The notes under the pieces are model-generated. The model made no database searches, had not been told where the DNA came from, and saw only the letters and a program-made list of their open reading frames with translations. Shown one piece after another: positions 5,863-25,586 of a stretch of 32,000 bases of DNA (the stretch's first letter is position 1; the number at the start of each line of letters is the position of its first letter). The stretch is from Candidatus Lokiarchaeum ossiferum. Its GTDB lineage: Archaea; Asgardarchaeota; Lokiarchaeia; Sigyniarchaeales; Promethearchaeaceae. The stretch spans positions 3,480,001-3,512,000 of the forward strand of contig CP104013.1 in the NCBI GenBank assembly GCA_025839675.1, in the 5' to 3' direction. The translations under genes and the position numbers were made by a program.

Positions 5863-6954
5863 TTAATTTGGGATGAATGAAGTATCCTTTGTAATCTTCT
5901 TGATTACGGCAACCGACAATTTCACAATCGCATCCACATCATTTAAATTGACAACTTCCGACATAGAATGCATATAACGGTTTGGAATTCCAATTAATGA
6001 GGTGGCTACTCCAGATCGAGAAAGATTTATGAAATTTGCATCAGTTCCAGTTCCCCGAGGTTCGGCAATGATTTGCACGGGCATCTCCATTTCTTGTGCT
6101 ATTTTGATTACGAGATCATAGAGTTTTGGAGCCATATTGGGACCTCGGGCAATGATTGGACCGCCGCTTAATTTGGAAATGCCTTGATCCTTTTCAGAAA
6201 TTGAAGGAGTATCTGTCGCGAAATCTACATCATACACGAAACTGATGTCAGGATCTACACCATAAGCACTAACTTTGGCTCCCCGCAATCCTACTTCTTC
6301 TTGGGTGGTAGAGACACCATAAACAGCGGCATCGAATTGTTCCCCTTTCAAATGTCGCAAAATTTCGGCGACAATAAAAGCTCCAATTTTATCATCGAAA
6401 CATCGTGATACAACATCCCCCTTGTTTCCCAATTTTTCATAGTAGAAGTCAAAAATGATTGGATCCCCAATGCGAATTCCAAGATCTTCAACTTCTTCTC
6501 GAGATCGAGCTCCAATATCAATGTATTGATCCTTGAGTTTTATTACTTTCTTACGTTCTTCAGGTTCTTGCAAATGGATGGCTTTTTTTCCCATGATTCC
6601 AATGATATCACCTTTGTTAGTTAAAATTTTCACGCGACATGCAGGGAGTAGATGGGCGTCTAACCCGCCAATCTGATGGACATAAATATATCCTTTTTCT
6701 GTGATATACCTTACTTGTAGGCCAACTTCGTCGACATGCCCTGCAAGCATAATTTTGGGTGATCCAGTAGGATTCACAATTCCAATTGCGTTTCCCAAGA
6801 TGTCAGTACGAATTTCGTCTACATATTCTTTAATATATGCTCGGAACAAACGTTGAGCAGGTTCTTCTGAGCCTGATGGGCTAGGAGCATTTACGAATTC
6901 TTCTAGGAATTGTTCATTAATTGTAAGTTTGTTTTCAGTCATTGACAAAATCAC
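5863..6954 (-). CDS. M42 family metallo-aminopeptidase (TET/FrvX-type), paralog 1.
   Basis: Metal-ligand motifs: AGHVDEVG, CFDDKIG, TTQEEVGLRG, YDVDFA and NRYMHS. Length is 363 aa. Confidence 0.9.
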   Translation of the reverse strand: MILSMTENKLTINEQFLEEFVNAPSPSGSEEPAQRLFRAYIKEYVDEIRTDILGNAIGIVNPTGSPKIMLAGHVDEVGLQVRYITEKGYIYVHQIGGLDAHLLPACRVKILTNKGDIIGIMGKKAIHLQEPEERKKVIKLKDQYIDIGARSREEVEDLGIRIGDPIIFDFYYEKLGNKGDVVSRCFDDKIGAFIVAEILRHLKGEQFDAAVYGVSTTQEEVGLRGAKVSAYGVDPDISFVYDVDFATDTPSISEKDQGISKLSGGPIIARGPNMAPKLYDLVIKIAQEMEMPVQIIAEPRGTGTDANFINLSRSGVATSLIGIPNRYMHSMSEVVNLNDVDAIVKLSVAVIKKITKDTSFIPN

Positions 6955-6985
6955 TTCTTGGTAATAAAAAAAAGGAAGAATTTCC

Positions 6986-8071
6986 CTACATAGGGATGAA
7001 AGAGGTGTCTTTCTTAATTTTCTTAATCACACCAACCACTAATTTGACTGTTGCTTCAACATCATCTAAATTGACAACTTCGTTCATGGTGTGCATATAA
7101 CGATTTGGAATGCCAATTAATCCTGTAGCGACACCAGCTTGTGCCATTTGGATGGATCGAGCATCAGTTCCCGTTGGACGTGGTGCTGCATCGATTTTAT
7201 ATGGTATTTCAAGTTCTTTTGCCGTTTCAACCATCAAGTCAAATAATTTCGGATTTATGTTTGGACCGCGAACAATGACTGGACCCCCTCCAAGAGGCTT
7301 TATCCCAATATCTAATTCTTTAACGTCTGGTGAATCGCTAGCATGGGTGACATCAAACGCAATTCCCACCTTTGGATTGATACTATAAGCAGAAACAATC
7401 GCTCCTCGCGTACCAACTTCTTCTTGGGTTGTGGAGACTCCGTGAATCTCTCCATCAAATTCCGTACCCTTCAATCGACGCATGACTTCAGCAATTACAA
7501 AACCTCCAATTTTATCATCAAAACATCGGGCTACGACATCACCATTATTTCCTAGCTTGGTATAATTACTAATGAAAACCATAGGATCTCCAATTTTAAC
7601 TCCTAGTTCTTCCACTTCTTCTCGTGTTCGAGCTCCGATATCAATGTATTGATCCTTGAGTTTGATTATTTTTGTACGCTCATCAGGTTGCTGCAAGTGA
7701 ATAGCCTTTTTACCAATAATCCCCAAAATTTCTCCTTTATCAGTTAAAATTTTAATACGATTTCCAGGAGTAATGTGAGCGTCAATTCCTCCTAATTGAT
7801 TGAAGTAAATATAACCTTTCTCAGTAATGTAGCGAACTTGCAAACCCACTTCATCGACATGTCCTGCAAGCATAATCTTTGGTCCTTCACCAATGTTCAT
7901 TATTGCATCTACATTTCCAAGGACATCCGTTGTAAATTTTTCAGCGATATCGGCAAGGTATTCCCGATATACTTTTTGGGCGGGTTCTTCTACTCCTGTT
8001 GGACTTGGAGTGTTAATAAATCGTTCTAAAAATTCTTCATTAATTGTTCTTTGTGTTGTCATAGTAATCAC
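6986..8071 (-). CDS. M42 family metallo-aminopeptidase (TET/FrvX-type), paralog 2.
   Basis: It has the same motif set (AGHVDEVG, CFDDKIG, TTQEEVGTRG, NRYMHT). It is roughly 60-65 percent identical to the adjacent paralog by eye, and is on the same strand with a 31-nt spacer. Confidence 0.9.
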   Translation of the reverse strand: MITMTTQRTINEEFLERFINTPSPTGVEEPAQKVYREYLADIAEKFTTDVLGNVDAIMNIGEGPKIMLAGHVDEVGLQVRYITEKGYIYFNQLGGIDAHITPGNRIKILTDKGEILGIIGKKAIHLQQPDERTKIIKLKDQYIDIGARTREEVEELGVKIGDPMVFISNYTKLGNNGDVVARCFDDKIGGFVIAEVMRRLKGTEFDGEIHGVSTTQEEVGTRGAIVSAYSINPKVGIAFDVTHASDSPDVKELDIGIKPLGGGPVIVRGPNINPKLFDLMVETAKELEIPYKIDAAPRPTGTDARSIQMAQAGVATGLIGIPNRYMHTMNEVVNLDDVEATVKLVVGVIKKIKKDTSFIPM

Positions 8072-11307: not shown

Positions 11308-11672
11308 ATAAGATCGAGTCTTGCACTGGATGCTCCAAAATTTCCACAGAAGTTCCATCCATGCGATTTGTATTTACTATATCTGTTCTACTTCGATTTA
11401 TAGAGCTAGGTTTATATATGATGTGGAAAACTTTCCAAGTGACACCTTTGTATTTTAGAATTTTTCCAATTTTATAAAGTCAAAAGGATAAGTTTTCAAT
11501 TTCCTTTTTTTCAATATATAATCCTGTATAAATTTTCAAAATTAGTTTTGGAACGCGCAAAAGTAGTGATAAAACGTAATGTTAATAGGTAAAATACATT
11601 GTTGTCATTAGTACAGTTTGATCTAAACCTTAGATTAAACTGCTCCAGATTTTATCTTTGGTGCAAAACAAA

Positions 11673-12206
11673 ATGAGTTTACTTGAAACCGCAGTCTTCT
11701 TTCAAGGGGAAACCCTTTTAGAAAAGCAATTTTATGCAAAAACGGAACAAGAAATGATTCCTGGTCGAACTAACTTGATCAAAGCAATTACAACTATGGC
11801 AGAAAGTGCTTTTGATGATGAAATTAAACATTTTGTCGTCGGTGACCATGAAATTATGCTCAAATCGCATGATATTGATCCTATTGATGAAGATATGGCT
11901 AAAATGCCTCTTTATATGTATGCAATTGCGGAAAAAAATATTAATAAAAAAGCTGTCGAAGACTCTATGGATGAGGCCCTTTTCCAATTTACCAATCGTT
12001 TTTCAACTCATGATATCATGGAAAAGAAAAAATCTCTATTTCAAGAATTCGTCGATCGCTTCGATAAAATTTTCAAGGGATTAATTTACACTCCTGATGC
12101 TAAAAAAACTGCGAAAGCTTTAAAAAAAATGGAAGAAGCCCAACGATATGCTGAACGACAGGCTCAACGTTCGCAGAATTATACCAATTCAATAAATCGG
12201 TTTTAA
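11673..12206 (+). CDS. Hypothetical protein with a predicted longin-like fold and a basic helical tail.
   Basis: The secondary-structure pattern, read from residue propensities, is beta-beta-alpha-beta-beta-beta-alpha-alpha: LLETAVFFQ, TLLEKQFY, GRTNLIKAITTMAESAF, IKHFVVGDH, EIMLKSHDI, PLYMYAIAEKN, then two helices. PLYMYAIAEKNINKKAVEDSMDEALFQFTNRF resembles the sigma-adaptin segment GLYFCICVD...AIHNFVEVLNEYF. The track start 11658 is TTG; ATG is at 11673. Confidence 0.4.
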   Translation: MSLLETAVFFQGETLLEKQFYAKTEQEMIPGRTNLIKAITTMAESAFDDEIKHFVVGDHEIMLKSHDIDPIDEDMAKMPLYMYAIAEKNINKKAVEDSMDEALFQFTNRFSTHDIMEKKKSLFQEFVDRFDKIFKGLIYTPDAKKTAKALKKMEEAQRYAERQAQRSQNYTNSINRF

Positions 12207-12265: not shown

Positions 12266-14338
12266 ATGATTGAACCTAGCATTAAGGATGTTCAAAAACT
12301 TCCAATTCCAAGTTCGATTTCTGTTTCAAATGATGGAAGTAAGATTGCCTATACCTTGATTAAGCCAAATTTCAAAGATAACTATTACGAAACTCATTGT
12401 TATGTTTATTCAACTGACTCAAAAAAAACGATACAGCTTACTTATGAAGGGAGCATATCCAATATTGAATGGATGGACTGTGATTCTTTAGCTTTTGTTT
12501 ATTCAAATCCTTCAATTAAGGATGAAAAACCCCAAGTCTATCTTTTTAAGGATCTTGCAGGTCAACCCCTTCAACTTACGGATCATAAAAGTGGAATTAC
12601 TTCCTTCAAGTTTTTTGAAGGAGGTTTGCTATATCTCGCAGATGATCCAGATTATTTTGAAGAAAGAGAGAATATTTATGGAGATTTGATTCATTCAGAA
12701 CGAGATAATTCTGCTTCCAATATCTATTATTTGAATATCCCTAAAGTTCTCCGATACAGGGATGAGTTGAAACTTGTTGATGATAAACAAGGGAAGAAAA
12801 TCCCAAAACCCATCCTAGATCTGAAAAAATACATGAATATTAATCGGAAAATTGAAGGAATTGTTATTCCCAATTCTCGTTCTGGTAAATTTATTGTCAA
12901 TACTCGGGAACGGGACGATCTTGTCTTCCTACAGAAAAAGAAGTCTTATTTAATGAATATTGATATAGACAATATACTCGCTGAATTTCTTATCTATCAA
13001 GAAAATGATGATAAAGATAAGGAAGAGAAAGAAATATTTGGTGAATTTGATTTCAAAGCTTTAAATTTATTTGAGGAATCCAGCGTACTAGCTTTTTCTC
13101 CGGATGATTCTAAAATATTAATTGATTTGAAAATAGAGGGGAAGCTTTTTTATCACCAAACAGAACTCTCTGTGCTTTTCCTAGATCAACTAAACTCCGA
13201 AAATCTCGAAAATATTATTCTTAAACAATGTATTACAAACTCTTTTGATCATGAGCCGTTTAGCGTGAAATGGGTTAAATCAGGTATATATCTTGCACAT
13301 GCAGCTTATTCAACTATCAATATTCAAAAATTCGATTTGAATGGAACTTTTGAAAGAATCCATTTTGGGATATACTCTCCCAGTTTTGAATTTTCTGTCA
13401 GTAATGACGGTTTGGTCTCCAGTTATATTTCCAATACTGAGAAATATCAAGAAGTTGCCTTCATAAAAGAAGGAAAACTGGAAATTATCACAAATTTGAA
13501 TAAATTAATTGAAAACTGGAATTTGGGCAGCTCAGAATCAGTCAAATGGAAAGCTTCTGATAATCTTGAGATTGAAGGAGTTCTTAGAAAACCATCGAAT
13601 TTTGATCCCAGCAAAAAATATCCTCTGGTATTTATTGTGCATGGGGGACCCACATCGTACTCTGACAATTCAATACTCACATATTACTTGATGCGATATT
13701 ATCCCGCCGTACAATTTCTTAATCGGGGTATTATTGTTGTGGAACCTAACTATCGTGGATCAATTGGTAGAGGGAAGGCATTCATGAAAAAATATGCTGA
13801 AAACATAGGTTTTGGAGATATGGATGATCTTGAAAGTGCAATTGATCACCTTGTCAAACAAGGTTTTGTAGATGAGAATAAAATTGGGTGTATGGGATGG
13901 AGTCAAGGGGGGTATATCTCTGCATTTGTGACAACTCATTCAAATCGGTTTGTTGCAACCAGTGTAGGTGCAGGAGTGTCTTCATGGAAAACCTACTACA
14001 ATTCAAATGATATACGACAATGGGCCGTACACTATTTAGGGGGCACTCCTCTGACAAACCCTGAATATTACAAAAAGACGGCTCCCATGAACAATATATT
14101 AAATGCAAAAACGCCTACACTTTTCCAACATGGTGAATTAGATCAACGATGCCCTCTCCCCAATGCAACAGCCCTCAACCGTGCTTTAATGGAGCTTGGA
14201 GTTGAGACAGACCTTTTTATTATTAAAGGAATGCCCCATGGTATTACAAAACCTCGTGAAAATATGGCAGTTCTCCACCAAAATCTGAAATGGTTTTCTC
14301 ATTACTTACTAGGGGAAGCCCTTGATTGGACTGAGTGA
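12266..14338 (+). CDS. S9 family serine peptidase (prolyl oligopeptidase / acylaminoacyl-peptidase type) with an N-terminal beta-propeller and C-terminal alpha/beta hydrolase.
   Basis: Nucleophile elbow GWSQGGY, HGGP oxyanion region, HGELDQRCP (Asp) and MPHG (His). The long N-terminal region is consistent with a propeller. Confidence 0.85.
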   Translation: MIEPSIKDVQKLPIPSSISVSNDGSKIAYTLIKPNFKDNYYETHCYVYSTDSKKTIQLTYEGSISNIEWMDCDSLAFVYSNPSIKDEKPQVYLFKDLAGQPLQLTDHKSGITSFKFFEGGLLYLADDPDYFEERENIYGDLIHSERDNSASNIYYLNIPKVLRYRDELKLVDDKQGKKIPKPILDLKKYMNINRKIEGIVIPNSRSGKFIVNTRERDDLVFLQKKKSYLMNIDIDNILAEFLIYQENDDKDKEEKEIFGEFDFKALNLFEESSVLAFSPDDSKILIDLKIEGKLFYHQTELSVLFLDQLNSENLENIILKQCITNSFDHEPFSVKWVKSGIYLAHAAYSTINIQKFDLNGTFERIHFGIYSPSFEFSVSNDGLVSSYISNTEKYQEVAFIKEGKLEIITNLNKLIENWNLGSSESVKWKASDNLEIEGVLRKPSNFDPSKKYPLVFIVHGGPTSYSDNSILTYYLMRYYPAVQFLNRGIIVVEPNYRGSIGRGKAFMKKYAENIGFGDMDDLESAIDHLVKQGFVDENKIGCMGWSQGGYISAFVTTHSNRFVATSVGAGVSSWKTYYNSNDIRQWAVHYLGGTPLTNPEYYKKTAPMNNILNAKTPTLFQHGELDQRCPLPNATALNRALMELGVETDLFIIKGMPHGITKPRENMAVLHQNLKWFSHYLLGEALDWTE

Positions 14339-14551
14339 ATCAAAAAGTATGGATAAAGGGTCATACCAGGTTTAATTTCTTCTCTATTCATTGATTGCTG
14401 GATCGGGGCTCGCGATTAATGATCTTCTTTTTATTACAAATTCATCTCGTTCTAGATAAAAAGGTCGATACCGATCATCTTATTCTTCAAATGGTTCTTG
14501 AAAAAAATTGTAAAAGAAAGATATTTAATTCCAAGAAATAATTTAGCTTTA

Positions 14552-15742
14552 ATGAATCCTACTGAAACACGTTCTCGCCAACCTCAGAAAATGGTCCTTA
14601 TGGGGATGGGAAATGCGGGAAAATCATCGATCCTCAAGACAATACTGAACGAATTTGATTCGTTTGCTTCCCTTCTGCCAACAACTGGAGTAGAAAGAAC
14701 TCGAATGGAGTTTTTTGGAAGAGAATTATCTATATGGGATTTCGGAGGGCAAATAGATTACCGAAAAATGTATTTATCTCGCCCAATAATGTATTTTCAA
14801 GGAATAAAGTATCTGTATTATGTTATAGACGCTCAAGATGATGCGAAAATTCCAGAAAGTATCGAATACTTCCTGAAGGTTTTTGAAAATACCATAGAAT
14901 TTTCGGATGATGTGAAAGTCTATCTATTCTTCCATAAGATTGATCCAAAAACCCCAAAAAATGTCGCTGTCAAATATACAGGCATTGAAGAGAATTTCTT
15001 GGTTGCTACTTTACCCGAAATGAAACGTCATAAAATTGAACCGGTGATTTTTCATACATCTATTTTTAATCCCATGACGGTTATCTCTGCGTTTTCCAGA
15101 CCATTGTTAGGAAATCAAACGATTTATGAAACTTTGTGCGAAGCGGTCGATTCTTTCTGTTGGGAACGAGAGTTACCTTTTGGAATTATTTTTCTCGATA
15201 CATTGGAAATCGGAAGTTATTACGCTAATTCTAAAGTTTTTGATTATGTAAATACTAAAATTGCGAAGTATTTGGATTGGTTAGATGATGTTGAAGAACC
15301 CCCAGAATATAAAATGGGCAAATTTGATGTGACAACCAAACAATTTACTATTCTAATTGGAGAAAATGAATTTACGTTTAATTTGATGGTGGGGGTCGAT
15401 CCTTTAAATGCTCCTGATGAAATTGACGAATTATTTACATCCATGGGTGAATTTTCTGATGGGTTGGAAAAAATTTTATTGAATGCCGAAATAATACGAT
15501 CTGGAGAGCTTCGAACAGAAAATCTATTTAATTCCATTGATCCTGAAGAACGAAGGCGCCAATTGGATGAATTGGATGAATTGGCAGAATTGGAAGAAGA
15601 AGATCGATTTAAACTGGCTGAAAAAGAGCGAGAACTTGAAATTCTCGATGAACAGTATGTGAAAATGAAGGAAAAAATGCCCGAAGAATCTGAAGATAGC
15701 GAAGATGACGACGAAGTCGATTTTGACGATCTTGACGAATAA
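14552..15742 (+). CDS. Rag/Gtr1-like small GTPase with a roadblock-type C-terminal domain, followed by a charged coiled-coil and acidic tail.
   Basis: G1 GMGNAGKSS, G2 region PTTGVE, G3 IWDFGGQ, G4 HKID (the Rag-specific HKxD variant of NKxD) and G5 HTSIF (compare RagA TSIWD). The C-terminal region pattern is alpha-beta-beta-alpha-beta-beta-alpha. The tail is EESEDSEDDDEVDFDDLDE. The track start 14498 is TTG; the first ATG is at 14552. Confidence 0.7.
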   Translation: MNPTETRSRQPQKMVLMGMGNAGKSSILKTILNEFDSFASLLPTTGVERTRMEFFGRELSIWDFGGQIDYRKMYLSRPIMYFQGIKYLYYVIDAQDDAKIPESIEYFLKVFENTIEFSDDVKVYLFFHKIDPKTPKNVAVKYTGIEENFLVATLPEMKRHKIEPVIFHTSIFNPMTVISAFSRPLLGNQTIYETLCEAVDSFCWERELPFGIIFLDTLEIGSYYANSKVFDYVNTKIAKYLDWLDDVEEPPEYKMGKFDVTTKQFTILIGENEFTFNLMVGVDPLNAPDEIDELFTSMGEFSDGLEKILLNAEIIRSGELRTENLFNSIDPEERRRQLDELDELAELEEEDRFKLAEKERELEILDEQYVKMKEKMPEESEDSEDDDEVDFDDLDE

Positions 15743-15790
15743 TTGAATGATCTCTAAACTCTTTTTTATTTTGCATTTTATTATTAATCA

Positions 15791-17149
15791 ATGGCCCATG
15801 TGATGTATTTTGATCAAAAAAAACACCCAAAATCTGCTATTAATGCTGGAACAAATTGGGCCGAATCTGTAGGGTATGTGTTTTGGTTCTTAAAAAGATG
15901 GATTCGGTATCGGATGTACTTATTAATTCGGTGGATACCGCTTACCATTCAAGAAGGAATCGCGGGGGTTTTAGGGCAATTATTTTTAGGTTTTTCGCGA
16001 AAAAATCAAATAAAAGTGCAGCAATCTTTTAATGCCTTATATAAACACAGACTCTCTACCAAGCGACTTAAACATTTATATAGAGCACATTGTAGTTATA
16101 TGGGCAAACTAGTCATTGATTTTATGAATGGGCTCCCTCTAAGAATTGATCAAGATGTCTCAGAGTTCATCACTTTCAAGCACTTGGATCGATTAGATTC
16201 TGCCCTAAAACAGGGGAAGGGTGCGATTATTCCCTGTCTTCACTTGGGACAACTCGTACATTTGCTCTATGCTCTTGCAAAACATCCAACCGGATATACT
16301 ATTGCGACCATATTTTTTGCTCCGAATATTGTTACTTATGAATTTACCAACCGAACTTGGGCTACAAACACTTATTTGTATGCAAGTACTAAATACTCCC
16401 GCGTAGCACCCTATTTGCAAGCCCATCTGGCACAAAACCATCTTGTAATTTTATTTCACGATTATGGGACTCGACATCAAATGCGTGTACCTTTTTGCCA
16501 GGGCGTTTATCCCTATTTAATTCATACTCCCCAAAGTGTAGTAAAGTTGCACAAGGATACTGGAGCCCCTATTATTCCATGTATCAATACACCCGCAGGA
16601 GTTGTTGGAAAAACCTCGCTCAATTTCCTCGATAATTCTTCTTTAGTGAACATATCCCAAAAATATCAAAACAAATCAAAAAAGGAATTTCATGGGAGAA
16701 TGAGCACAGAACTGAATCGCTTGATGAATCCATCTCTCAGGAAATTTTCACATGTTTGGGAAGAAATCACTGATTTTGCCACCACACGTATTGCTGATCA
16801 GTTAATAGTTCCACCAATGATCAATCTACAAGAGTTAATTCTGTTGGTTGCAAAAAAATCTCATCAGATATTAGAAAAAAGTTATGAGCCGGGTCGTGAT
16901 GATGCTTCTATTCATGAACTCCTTCAAGAGATGTTTCTGAAAATTCGATCGTCATTAACAGTGCCAGAAACCATCTTGGTTCAGGCTTCTGAAACTATTG
17001 ATTTATCTCAAATGAATGCATTATCTGAAATTCAAACCCTTTGCTCCTATGTGAAAAATCTATTGCAAAAAGCATCTCACTTCGATGAAGATGTATCAAT
17101 CAATTTAATAACTCAACTAAAGGAAGAGTTAAAAAAATTAAAATATTAG
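15791..17149 (+). CDS. LpxL/HtrB-like (lysophospholipid/lipid A-type) acyltransferase family protein with a ~150 aa helical C-terminal extension.
   Basis: An N-terminal hydrophobic anchor, then colinearity with the lauroyl/myristoyl acyltransferase family: ALKQGKGAIIPCLHLGQL (compare GKGVIL-x-PHFGNWE), VILFHDYG (compare PDQD) and HTPQSVVKLHKDTGAPIIPC (compare TGPARLA-x-TGAPVVPV). Confidence 0.5.
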   Translation: MAHVMYFDQKKHPKSAINAGTNWAESVGYVFWFLKRWIRYRMYLLIRWIPLTIQEGIAGVLGQLFLGFSRKNQIKVQQSFNALYKHRLSTKRLKHLYRAHCSYMGKLVIDFMNGLPLRIDQDVSEFITFKHLDRLDSALKQGKGAIIPCLHLGQLVHLLYALAKHPTGYTIATIFFAPNIVTYEFTNRTWATNTYLYASTKYSRVAPYLQAHLAQNHLVILFHDYGTRHQMRVPFCQGVYPYLIHTPQSVVKLHKDTGAPIIPCINTPAGVVGKTSLNFLDNSSLVNISQKYQNKSKKEFHGRMSTELNRLMNPSLRKFSHVWEEITDFATTRIADQLIVPPMINLQELILLVAKKSHQILEKSYEPGRDDASIHELLQEMFLKIRSSLTVPETILVQASETIDLSQMNALSEIQTLCSYVKNLLQKASHFDEDVSINLITQLKEELKKLKY

Positions 17150-18166
17150 ATAAAAGATCAGATAAAAGGCTCCAGATAACATAGCTGCAAATGGAAACGT
17201 GACGATCCACGCAATAACCATCTTTTTCAGTGCCTGCCAATTCGGTTTTTCTCCCTTAACTAATCCGCTCCCAACAATAGCAAAAATTAAGACATGTGAT
17301 CCAGAGATTGGTAAACCGAGCATTGTGCAAGTAAAAACTACCAATGCATTAGAACTTTCAATCGCTAAAGCATCACTTGGACGCATTTCGATCAAAGATC
17401 CACCAACATTTTTAATGACATTTCTCCCGACTAATATTAGACCAACTGCAATCATTATTCCTGTCGCAACCTTAAGTAGACTCGCGATGTTTTGAGGAAT
17501 ATCGCCATTTTCCACCAATCCATAATATATTCCAACTGCATTGGCCGAATCGTTTCCCCCTCGACTGAGTTGAGTAATTGATATGAATATTAGAAGAAAA
17601 TATTGGAAAGTTTTTTCACTCCGTTCAATTTCTGAAAATCCAATTTTACCATCTTTTTGCCATTTTCGATTAATTAATTTTAGAATTAACGTTTGCATTA
17701 AAAAGGCTGTAACCATTCCTAAAACTGGTGATATTACCCAACCCAAAGCAACTTTTCCGAGTTTTAACCAGTTTAATGAATCTACAAAATCATTTCCGGG
17801 AATAAATGACCAAACAAAGGCAACTCCAATGACACTTCCAACAACTGAATGAGTGGTTGAGATAGGAGCTCCTGTTTTTGAAGCAAAAACTAACCAGATA
17901 CTCGTACTTAAAATGATGGCCAACATCATCCACATATCATATTGACCTTGGAGTGTATCTCCGAGTAAACTTGATCCAATGTTTTTTCCTACACCTTCTG
18001 ATAAGAAAATACAACCGATACAAGCCAGAAAGCCTCCCCAAATAACTGCTCTATTTAAACTGAGGGTTCCGCTTCCAACCACAGAACTCATGGTTTCGTC
18101 ATTGCTGCCGATGCCAAATGCCAAGTATAGCGTGACTATCAATATTACAACGATTAAGATATCCAT
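17138..18166 (-). CDS. PiT family inorganic phosphate (or sulfate) transporter.
   Basis: Duplicated PiT signature GIGSNDETMSSVVGSG and RGGNDSANAVG. Multiple transmembrane segments. The adjacent DUF47 partner is typical of PiT genes. Confidence 0.85.
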   Translation of the reverse strand: MDILIVVILIVTLYLAFGIGSNDETMSSVVGSGTLSLNRAVIWGGFLACIGCIFLSEGVGKNIGSSLLGDTLQGQYDMWMMLAIILSTSIWLVFASKTGAPISTTHSVVGSVIGVAFVWSFIPGNDFVDSLNWLKLGKVALGWVISPVLGMVTAFLMQTLILKLINRKWQKDGKIGFSEIERSEKTFQYFLLIFISITQLSRGGNDSANAVGIYYGLVENGDIPQNIASLLKVATGIMIAVGLILVGRNVIKNVGGSLIEMRPSDALAIESSNALVVFTCTMLGLPISGSHVLIFAIVGSGLVKGEKPNWQALKKMVIAWIVTFPFAAMLSGAFYLIFYLIF

Positions 18167-18198
18167 TTCGATTTCCTACAGATGCTTTTAACTCTAAT

Positions 18199-18870
18199 TT
18201 AAAATGTAGAATACTTGGCGATTAATCCATAGATATAATCCGCAAAATGTTCCATTCGATTGGTAACTTCCGCTAAATTATTCATTAATTCTGCGTAGAA
18301 GCGAAATTCTCGATAATCTGGTTTAATATAATAGAGTGCTTTGAAAAATTCAAGTTTTCTTTCTCGTACAGAATGTCGAGCTTCGTTAATTGTGACACAT
18401 GTTTCCATAGCCTCATCAAAATTATCAAAAAATTGAGACACTAATCCATTGACCATTTTTCCAATTTGAGCTGTTTTTTTACCTACAGCCTCAATATGGA
18501 CATTTAACTCGCGAATAGGGTTTTCAGGAGTAAAAACTTCGAGGTCAAACATAACTTTTTTGGCCTGTCCTACAATCCGATCCATCGCCGTAACCATACG
18601 CATTCTATCAGGTCGAGAAAAAACCATAGATTCGGAACCGAAAATCCGTGAAATAATCTCATCACGACATTGATCCTGTTCATCTTCTAAATCAATGCAT
18701 TTATTTGAGTATCTTTTTTTCCTTTCCATATCAAAAGCACAAAATGCTGTAAGGGCAAATTGCATTGCCTCTAAAGCGTCTTCTAAAAGACATGCATCAT
18801 TGATGAAAAGATCCTGTAATTTTCCTTTAAGTTCCTTATTACTTCTCTTATAATTTTTTAGTTTACCCAT
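18199..18870 (-). CDS. DUF47 / PhoU-like putative phosphate-transport regulator.
   Basis: All-helical, 223 aa, with LEDEQDQCRDEI and RPDRMRMVTAMDRIVGQAK matching the lE-e-D...D-r-l...mD-i-d pattern of the family. It lies immediately upstream of PiT on the same strand. Confidence 0.7.
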   Translation of the reverse strand: MGKLKNYKRSNKELKGKLQDLFINDACLLEDALEAMQFALTAFCAFDMERKKRYSNKCIDLEDEQDQCRDEIISRIFGSESMVFSRPDRMRMVTAMDRIVGQAKKVMFDLEVFTPENPIRELNVHIEAVGKKTAQIGKMVNGLVSQFFDNFDEAMETCVTINEARHSVRERKLEFFKALYYIKPDYREFRFYAELMNNLAEVTNRMEHFADYIYGLIAKYSTF

Positions 18871-23777: not shown

Positions 23778-25586
23778 TTAAAGGAGTTTTTCTAAATCTT
23801 CGGTAAAGCGGGCGTATTGCTGCAACCCTAATTCCCAAAATTCTGGTTTAGAAATATCAAAACCGATAATTTCACCAATCTTTTTTGGTGAAAGGCTACT
23901 TCCTGCACTTAGCATTTTTTTAAACTTAGGCACAAATGATGCACCTTCTTGTTTATAAATTTGATATAATGCGTAAACAAAACAGTTTGCGAAGACATAG
24001 GGGTAGTTATAGAATCTAAAATTGGGAATATAATAATGTGCTTTCATGGCCCACTCCCAATTCATTTCATCAAACCAATCCACAGCATTTCCGAAAATTT
24101 TATCTCGTCCTGCACACCAAAGTTCCGAGATTTTTTCTCCACTTAGGAACTCTTCTTGTCGGATACTATCATATAAGCTTTGTTCAAAGAAAAATCGTGC
24201 ACTCACTTGGAAGGTTGCCATTCCAGCATCATCCAAAACATGAGCTAGAACCTTTATTTTTTCTACTTTCGTTTCGGCTTTTTCCAACAGAAGATCGGTC
24301 ATTAATAATTCTCCGAAAATGGATGCGATTTCTGCGACTACCATAGCTGTATTGGTATTGTGGAGAGTTTGTTCTTGAGAACTTAAATACGCATGACACG
24401 CGTGTCCTAATTCGTGAGCGAGGGTGTATATGTTTCCCATAGAACCAGTAAATGACTGTAACATGAACGCGGATTTTCCTTTGTACCAACTTTCACAGAA
24501 TGCGCCATTCGTTTTTCCAAAGCGGGGACTGGCATCAATATGATTGCGGGTAATCATATCTTGTACCATGGCGGCCATTGTAGGATCAAATCCATTATAA
24601 GCTTCTAAGACTAATTTAGTGGCTTCTTCCCATTCAAACTTCTTATTTTCTCCCAAGAGTAATGGAGCTACCAGATCTTGATTTCCTAACTTCGGTAAAT
24701 CCATGATCTTTGCTTTCAATGTCAAATATTTTTGATAAACCCCCACATTTGAAACGATTGCTTTCATTAGATTATCGATTGTATTTTGATCTACATCATT
24801 GGAAATTAAAGATTGGTGCATAGGACTATCATAATGGCGTCGTTTGGTGACATTCATCCAATCTCCACAAATATTTCGCAGTGCTGAAGAGAATATTTCA
24901 TTTTCCTTTCCTAGCAATCCATAAATTGCTTTGTTTGCAGAAGTTCGGGTTGCTCGATCAGGGTGGGACAATAAGCCATTGGCTTCGGCATATGACAGAT
25001 TTTTAATTTTTCCTTCCACTTCTACATCCATCATACGGGTATTTAACCACTTTGATTGAAGTTCACTCCATTTATTTACTCCGAATTCATCCTTCTCTAG
25101 CATGATTTGTTCTTCCACTTCACTTAGCTTATGGGCATGATTACGGTGAATTCGTTCCATATGGTGCTGATAATTCGAAAGTAGAGGATCTTTAATTAAA
25201 TCGGGAGTCATCAACAATAATGTTCCAACTTCAAGAGATAAAAAAGCTAATTGTTTGTTTATATTCGTTTGAAATGCATTCACACGATTAAAAAGAGATT
25301 GAACCTCTTCACTTGTCATTTCTGCGTAGAAAGATAATGAAGCGTAGGCTACTAATTCCGAAAGAGTTTCTAAAAAGCTTTCTTCCTTCTCAAATAGTTC
25401 TTTTACTCGGTTTGCGGAAAATTCTGATCCTGCAATTTTTCCTTTATAGGTTTCAACTAATAAATTGGCTTCATTCTGAAGTGCCGTTATTGTCTCATCA
25501 ATTTGAGGAGATTTGATGTTTGGAAAGATTTCACTAAAATCCCATGCGATTTCTTCTTGATTTTTAGATGTCGTCAATTTTATCAC
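23778..25586 (-). CDS. pepF: M3B family oligoendopeptidase F.
   Basis: Zinc motif HELGHACH with a downstream E (VVAEIASIFGE). Length is 602 aa, with overall PepF-like organisation. Confidence 0.85.
   Translation of the reverse strand: MIKLTTSKNQEEIAWDFSEIFPNIKSPQIDETITALQNEANLLVETYKGKIAGSEFSANRVKELFEKEESFLETLSELVAYASLSFYAEMTSEEVQSLFNRVNAFQTNINKQLAFLSLEVGTLLLMTPDLIKDPLLSNYQHHMERIHRNHAHKLSEVEEQIMLEKDEFGVNKWSELQSKWLNTRMMDVEVEGKIKNLSYAEANGLLSHPDRATRTSANKAIYGLLGKENEIFSSALRNICGDWMNVTKRRHYDSPMHQSLISNDVDQNTIDNLMKAIVSNVGVYQKYLTLKAKIMDLPKLGNQDLVAPLLLGENKKFEWEEATKLVLEAYNGFDPTMAAMVQDMITRNHIDASPRFGKTNGAFCESWYKGKSAFMLQSFTGSMGNIYTLAHELGHACHAYLSSQEQTLHNTNTAMVVAEIASIFGELLMTDLLLEKAETKVEKIKVLAHVLDDAGMATFQVSARFFFEQSLYDSIRQEEFLSGEKISELWCAGRDKIFGNAVDWFDEMNWEWAMKAHYYIPNFRFYNYPYVFANCFVYALYQIYKQEGASFVPKFKKMLSAGSSLSPKKIGEIIGFDISKPEFWELGLQQYARFTEDLEKLL

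Follow-up and report, generated by a model that had tools for sequence, protein, structure and literature searches.

A probable Lokiarchaeial member of the Rag/Gtr GTPase family, with a roadblock domain and an acidic tail, in Candidatus Lokiarchaeum ossiferum

Eukaryotic Rag GTPases, the amino-acid arm of TORC1 signalling, use a roadblock domain as their C-terminal platform. Here, we describe a gene from Candidatus Lokiarchaeum ossiferum, one of the few cultured Asgard archaea, that lies in a 32,000-nucleotide stretch of contig CP104013.1 (assembly GCA_025839675.1, positions 3,480,001 to 3,512,000 of the forward strand; this whole stretch is called the window, and positions are counted from its first letter). 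The gene, NEF87_002958, is complete at 14552..15742 on the plus strand, stop codon included, and its 396-aa product is, with a probability that we put at about 0.87, a Lokiarchaeial member of the Rag/Gtr small GTPase family, in which a Rag-type G domain is fused to a roadblock domain, and a probable orthologue of LokiRagM, for which crystal structures (8ZLA, 9M28) have been deposited. A charged helix and an acidic tail follow the two domains. We thus add a new, previously unannotated member to a known and recently crystallised family, of which the fused architecture and the abundance in the L. ossiferum genome had already been described.

The open reading frame (ORF) runs uninterrupted from the ATG at 14552 to the stop codon at 15740-15742, and the same start and 396-aa frame are found in public gene calls on identical DNA, where the exact-sequence match (UYP46673.1 / WP_371802181.1, NEF87_002958 of Ca. 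L. ossiferum) carries the annotation "hypothetical protein". Over 11.36 kb, the window is 100% identical to a contig assembled from run SRR22273276. A longer version starting at a TTG at 14498 is possible but less likely, since the public gene calls use the ATG, the equivalent of which is the N-terminal start in most relatives in a 30-sequence alignment of the family. An A/T-rich box, aaagatatttaat, lies at ~14517-14530, ~25 nt 5' of the GTPase ATG, a position that suggests a leaderless archaeal transcript. The whole protein has a net charge of -40.

Functionally, the G domain (residues ~10-186, 14579..15109, plus strand like all features of this gene; Pfam Gtr1_RagA match at residues 13-183) retains each motif expected of a Rag-type nucleotide switch. 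The G1 motif, or P-loop, reads GMGNAGKS (residues 18-25, 14603..14626), with G18, G23 and K24 invariant in the family, and S26 next to it invariant as well; the G2 or switch I threonine, T44, lies within PTTGV (14681..14683) and is likewise invariant; G3, WDFGGQ (residues 62-67, 14735..14752), begins switch II with an invariant W62, D63, G66 and Q67, the last being the glutamine at the catalytic position; G4 reads HKID (residues 128-131, 14933..14944), the Rag-type HKxD and not NKxD, with H128, K129 and D131 invariant; and G5, TSI (residues 169-171, 15056..15064), has an invariant T169 and nearly invariant S170 and I171. Invariance was scored in the 30-sequence alignment, and the key G-motif residues are invariant also in a cleaner 27-sequence alignment. 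An earlier note on this DNA, made from the letters alone, had placed five G motifs here with HKID at G4, had taken HKxD for a Rag trait and had judged G3 and G5 to track RagA, and all three readings are borne out. In HMMER alignments HKxD stands at G4 in yeast Gtr1 (LLHKMD), in human RagC and S. pombe Gtr2 (HKVD) and in LokiRagO, a second crystallised Asgard protein (HKFD); G3 aligns with WDCGGQ of Gtr1 and with WDFPGQ of RagC and Gtr2; and G5 aligns with the TSI of RagC (TSIYD), the alignment to Gtr1 being off by four residues in the G5 stretch.

Among Pfam profiles, Gtr1_RagA (PF04670) scored best, with 82.4 bits (E=4e-23, cut-off 22), followed by Arf at 55.1 bits (8e-15) and Ras at 24.2 bits, and Gtr1_RagA was matched by 30/30 family members. 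The earlier note had named a best match to Arf, Rab or MglA, or a C-terminal fold other than roadblock, as outcomes that would tell against its reading; neither is what we found. Searched against PDB sequences, the protein hit the LokiRagM entries 8ZLA and 9M28 at E=7e-112 (residues 7-391 against 6-383), LokiRagO (8YL2) at 3e-31 and Gtr1 at ~2e-13. A profile of 27 Lokiarchaeial relatives (A3, the 30-sequence set minus P0043-P0045) gave 612 bits for 8ZLA, 172 for 8YL2, 81 for Gtr1, 76 for RagA, 59 for Arl3, 52 for RagC/Gtr2 and 45 for Arf, and its alignment with RagA, 9-269 to 5-265, extended far into the C-terminal domain. Another profile, A1, had ranked RagC and Gtr2 first and was discarded since it held P0045, a eukaryote-like RagC/Gtr2 sequence; without P0045 and two RagO-like sequences, the ranking turns to Gtr1 and RagA first. 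By these sequence comparisons, the Rag assignment holds and leans to the RagA/Gtr1 side.

Structurally, residues ~187-317 (15110..15502) are predicted to form a C-terminal roadblock domain, as judged from DSSP on an AlphaFold2 (AF2) model, from Foldseek and from the family profile. The model, built from the 30-sequence alignment, had a predicted local distance difference test score (pLDDT) of 73.7 and a predicted template-modelling score (pTM) of 0.59, and a single-sequence model with a pLDDT of 40 was discarded. It places the G domain up to residue ~186 and ends in a linker of low confidence (318-329), a long helix (331-375) and a disordered tail. In between, DSSP assigns helices (H) and strands (E) as H189-205, E210-215, E218-224, H227-245, E253-269, E272-282 and H291-317, which is the alpha-beta-beta-alpha-beta-beta-alpha order of the roadblock topology over residues 189-317 and the very order that had been read from the sequence in the earlier note. 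A near-invariant motif, L305..L309.N311.E313.I315-R316, closes the domain. The comparison with RagA and Gtr1 that the note had proposed came out in its favour: Foldseek aligned the model with RagA and Gtr1 chains across both domains (~290-325 columns, template-modelling score (TM) ~0.70, target-normalised), and with LokiRagO 8YL2 over its full length (TM 0.85, target-normalised; root-mean-square deviation (rmsd) 3.0 A). Because these Rag, Gtr1 and LokiRagO alignments span both domains, whereas those to the single-domain Arl and Arf GTPases cover just ~170-180 columns, the modelled C-terminal fold is that of a Rag-type roadblock domain.

Beyond the roadblock domain, the low-confidence linker (residues 318-329) and the charged helix (~331-375) occupy 15503..15676, delimited by AF2 secondary structure, pLDDT and conservation, and the acidic tail, MPEESEDSEDDDEVDFDDLDE (residues 376-396), occupies 15677..15739, delimited by composition and a pLDDT <50. 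Within 321-375, 20 residues are acidic and 11 basic, and 14/21 residues of 376-396 are D or E, with 0 basic. The pattern of the helix is conserved (EL..LE.ED[KR].K...[KR]..ELEI[LM][DE]), and by BLASTP the helix is kept between NEF87_002958 and 8ZLA up to residue 368; the tail differs in length and sequence among relatives and is acidic in every one. Sequences of a tail-less clade (P0036 to P0041) have no helix after the roadblock domain. The charged helix and very acidic tail pointed out before are therefore real features, which the tailed clade conserves and its tail-less sister lacks, and they are specific to the tailed Lokiarchaeial clade.

Evolutionarily, the family appears restricted in its named members, as 45 homologues were found among 5.8 billion clusters and all of the named ones belong to Promethearchaeota (Lokiarchaeia). 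Among the 1.84 billion representatives of a library clustered at 50% identity, 43 proteins scored E<=1e-30, only one of which (1/43) aligned through the tail, the other 42 being proteins of 300-348 aa with the two domains only. In a neighbour-joining tree of the shared region, NEF87_002958 falls inside a monophyletic tailed clade with the 8ZLA-like sequences, the tail-less clade is its sister, and the RagO-like sequences lie outside. The named homologue matches include two from L. ossiferum, a tailed copy and a tail-less paralogue, NEF87_000054, at 43% identity. Harpocratesius repetitus carries both a tailed gene and a RagO-like gene on contig JAIZWK010000001.1, at ~0.42 Mb (L008 5971-7242) and ~2.9 Mb (L075 5989-6963), hence ~2.5 Mb apart; the latter encodes a 324-aa RagO-type paralogue with HKSD at G4 and 8YL2 as its best PDB match (E=4.7e-33). 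Paralogues are thus dispersed in the genome. Among the matches listed by a genome scan, one was a full-length orthologue, in H. repetitus; a metagenome scan returned only two orthologues, both on contigs <2 kb that gave no gene context.

The closest known protein, LokiRagM, is collinear with NEF87_002958 over the full length, from G domain and roadblock domain to charged helix and acidic C-terminus. The two are 48% identical over 360 residues by BLASTP, matched at E=7e-112 in the PDB sequence search, and have HKID and the other invariant motifs in common, which makes NEF87_002958 the probable orthologue of LokiRagM. The latter differs in that it comes from another Lokiarchaeial lineage, has a different tail sequence, and belongs to a clade with a gene for an IFT52_GIFT protein downstream, where NEF87_002958 has an LpxL-like gene; the AF2 model of NEF87_002958 also has no global superposition on its crystal structure. 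LokiRagO shares the Rag-type G domain with HKxD and the roadblock domain (172 bits with the profile), but has only ~26-28% identity and neither charged helix nor acidic tail, was deposited as a tetramer, and belongs to a paralogous lineage, present together with the tailed type in H. repetitus (L008, L075). With RagA/B and Gtr1, and more distantly with RagC/D and Gtr2, the protein shares PF04670, HKxD, WDxGGQ and the roadblock domain, and its switch II region is about equal in length to that of Gtr1, with which it aligns nearly gap-free; unlike the eukaryotic Rags, to which it is ~20% identical, it has the extra charged helix and acidic tail, and neither a RagA-type/RagC-type partner nor a Ragulator/EGO, GATOR/SEA, FLCN or TORC1 context is evident for it.

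That Rag-like GTPases occur in Asgard archaea, as the earlier note had stated, is documented by two published studies (PMC10933270, PMC9834061) and by the LokiRagM crystal structures 8ZLA/9M28. Fusions of a GTPase with a roadblock domain are the second largest GTPase class in Promethearchaeum syntrophicum MK-D1, and Tran et al. (2024), who modelled this class with AF2, termed it Rag-like but close to Arf, with an unknown role (PMC10933270); the present case differs in that the tailed clade was not singled out there, and that homo- and heterodimers were modelled with no monomer proposed. In the L. ossiferum genome paper, "Gtr1/RagA GTPase" is listed among the eukaryotic signature proteins enriched in this organism (PMC9834061), and there is an abundance of Rag-family GTPases in Asgard archaea (bioRxiv 10.1101/2020.10.19.343400).

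Downstream of the GTPase gene, after 48 nt, lies NEF87_002959 (15791..17149, plus strand), which encodes a 452-aa homologue of LpxL/LpxP-like acyltransferases and is counted here as a neighbouring gene. Five of its six orthologues (5/6) match PF03279, with a best E of 5e-7, and NCBIfam LpxL models match weakly. NEF87_002959 has a hydrophobic N-terminal segment, and the His of the HX4D/E motif is retained in a conserved PxxHLGQ, with V, A or T at the +5 acidic position in 6/6 orthologues; these residues point to a possibly atypical or inactive acyltransferase. The GTPase and LpxL-like genes are adjacent in six related loci (the window, L001/L002, L003, L006/L008 of H. repetitus, L007 and L088). 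In P. syntrophicum MK-D1, the LpxL-like homologue, 31% identical, is surrounded by lipid genes (acyl-CoA synthetase, patatin) and has no GTPase in its vicinity; in the 8ZLA-like clade, an unrelated 474-aa IFT52_GIFT protein (PF23355) with a coiled-coil C-terminal half is encoded next to the GTPase, downstream of it (L004 4338-5762; L089 7227-8651; L090 7191-8615); and the tail-less clade has neither of these genes downstream. An intraflagellar-transport-type domain thus adjoins a Rag-like GTPase in Lokiarchaeia. The intergenic stretch 15743-15790 begins right after the GTPase stop codon with cttttttatttt (T6AT4), which is followed by an A/T-rich box, ttttattattaatc, before the next ATG; T6AT4 is a candidate archaeal oligo-T terminator, and together the two elements suggest separate transcription of the GTPase and LpxL-like genes.

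Several observations weigh against assigning NEF87_002958 to the Rag family. The single-sequence PDB scores are nearly tied, at 3.2e-10 for RagA and 3.4e-10 for Arl3; the NCBI name for many relatives is 'ADP-ribosylation factor-like protein'; no partner, GTPase-activating protein (GAP) or guanine-nucleotide exchange factor (GEF) has been identified; and the AF2 model fits LokiRagM poorly, with a TM of 0.40 (query) and 0.48 (target) and an rmsd of 16.6 A against 8ZLA, and of 0.37 (query) and 0.48 (target) with an rmsd of 17.0 A against 9M28. Either the real protein has a domain arrangement that is not Rag-like or the model is wrong there; the poor superposition may mean that the two domains are arranged differently in the monomeric crystal form, or it may be a modelling artefact. 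Moreover, GTP binding, hydrolysis and oligomeric state of NEF87_002958 are inferred from a relative of 48% identity. The first two points would fit an Arf/Arl-family GTPase that acquired a C-terminal domain and works through an interswitch toggle and membrane insertion, as would the second-best rank of Pfam Arf (8e-15) and the WDxGGQ motif, which is common to Arf; we nevertheless regard this as very improbable. Gtr1_RagA scores 27 bits above Arf, and with the family profile Gtr1 and RagA score 17-36 bits above Arl3 and Arf; Arf matches cover residues ~9-135 only, whereas Rag matches run through the roadblock domain; and the features of Arf/Arl/Sar membership are missing, with HKID in place of NKxD, two domains, a lower Arf score and an N-terminus, MNPTETRSRQPQK, that by sequence reading has no Gly2 and no amphipathic helix.

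As for oligomeric state, the depositors' titles of 8ZLA (GDP) and 9M28 (GTP), released on 2025-11-26 and 2026-03-04, both read 'monomeric Rag-like small GTPase from Asgard Lokiarchaeota (LokiRagM)', and that of 8YL2 reads 'Homo Tetrameric RagA-like small GTPase ... (LokiRagO)'; we found no publication on LokiRagM or LokiRagO (8ZLA, 9M28, 8YL2), and the monomer label is known from the PDB titles alone. Hmmsearch over six-frame ORFs of >=50 aa in the window gave one Rag-like match (5e-91) and a next-best value of 0.23, so that a second Rag-like G domain is absent from the 32 kb and the single copy remarked on before stands. Likewise, the family roadblock profile found no further related roadblock domain among these ORFs, and the Pfam roadblock, longin, DENN and NPRL models matched 0/29 neighbouring ORFs scanned in the 32 kb (such genes could lie elsewhere in the genome); a Ragulator/EGO scaffold with a GATOR/FLCN-type regulator was not found within the window, nor was an adjacent Rag paralogue in the 11 related loci examined. 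Because a 48%-identical relative is titled monomeric, one copy in the window would be expected and not puzzling. The protein could instead be a classical Rag-style dimer subunit, pairing through its roadblock domain with itself or with a paralogue elsewhere (NEF87_000054 or a LokiRagO-type protein), the 'monomeric' label then reflecting construct or conditions. Eukaryotic Rags do dimerise through the roadblock domain. Entries 3R7W and 6S6A are among the Foldseek matches, LokiRagO was deposited as a homotetramer, the same genomes contain paralogues (NEF87_000054, 43% identical; RagO-like L075 in H. repetitus), the AF2 model takes a Rag/RagO-like arrangement, and one operonic pair of Rag-like genes of strain MK-D1 was modelled as a heterodimer by Tran et al. 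(PMC10933270). Against this stand the monomeric titles in both nucleotide states, the lack of a paralogue in the window or in an adjoining gene in the 11 related loci, and a clade-specific C-terminal helix that could cover the dimer surface, and we consider such a dimer unlikely. It is more doubtful, to the point of being very unlikely, that the GTPase and the LpxL-like membrane acyltransferase homologue form a functional module that regulates acylation or membrane-lipid remodelling, or anchors the GTPase to the membrane. In its favour, the two genes share a strand with 48 nt between them and stay adjacent in six loci in which the GTPases are 50-87% and the acyltransferase homologues 37-84% identical, the genes farther out vary between loci (S9 peptidase, methyltransferase, UDG or flavodoxin upstream; PHO4 or PP-loop ATPase downstream), and the neighbour combines a hydrophobic N-terminal segment with LpxL-family similarity; yet the MK-D1 homologue has no GTPase nearby, the 8ZLA-like clade has the unrelated IFT52_GIFT gene in that place, T6AT4 after the stop and the A/T-rich box hint at separate transcripts, and the paired loci share wider synteny, so common ancestry alone could explain the adjacency. 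A bolder form, in which the pair, kept in this order in several Lokiarchaeial genera, would be a GTP-switched membrane-lipid remodelling module with the acidic tail or charged helix docking on the membrane enzyme, is if anything slightly harder to credit; if true, the control of membrane composition by small GTPases would have a prokaryotic precedent, and this in the nearest lineage to eukaryotes.

The remaining neighbours include, directly upstream, a Pfam-assigned S9 prolyl-oligopeptidase-family peptidase (12266-14338, plus strand) and, further upstream, an orphan ORF of 177/182 aa, NEF87_002956 (11658-12206, ATG at 11673, plus strand), with only six relatives. By eye, the latter reads as beta-beta-alpha-beta-beta-beta-alpha-like and longin-resembling, followed by a basic C-terminal helix; we set it aside as a longin-like partner, as it had no Pfam, NCBIfam or PDB match and a probability of 2.7% in hhalign against the family roadblock domain. 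On the minus strand, a PHO4-family phosphate transporter gene (17138-18870) shares 12 nt with the 3' end of the LpxL-like gene, and with the PhoU_div (DUF47) gene that follows it makes up a standard Pit-type phosphate uptake pair. Two tandem M42 aminopeptidases (5863-8071, minus strand) and an M3 oligopeptidase (23778-25586, minus strand) were also assigned by Pfam. The M42 pair is syntenic in several relatives, and only in L001 and L002, the two closest loci, does the S9 gene adjoin the GTPase gene. A link between this peptidase-rich neighbourhood and Rag-style amino-acid sensing was set aside, given the S9 adjacency in those two loci only and a remainder that looks like shared synteny.

Returning to the reading that we favour, a Lokiarchaeial Rag/Gtr-family GTPase, the motifs mark the G domain as a Rag-type nucleotide switch, with a P-loop, the switch I threonine, DxxGQ with its catalytic-position glutamine, and HKxD for guanine recognition. 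By analogy with the relative crystallised in both states, the protein would cycle between GTP and GDP forms, and its switch state would be read by partners on the G domain or on the roadblock platform. Going by the depositors' monomeric title, it may act as a single chain and not as an obligate heterodimer of the RagA/RagC type, and, more speculatively, the conserved charged helix and acidic tail could dock a partner or, within the same chain, cap the roadblock surface. Archaea are not known to have TOR or TORC1, and the locus offers no regulators and no sign of a part in nutrient sensing. The role most likely lies in regulation of a membrane-associated or trafficking type, the kind generally proposed for Asgard small GTPases. 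Asgard Rag-like proteins are candidate ancestors of the eukaryotic Rags, and with a cultured Asgard host, a 48%-identical relative crystallised in both nucleotide states, and a clade-specific helix and tail, this gene is well placed among them.

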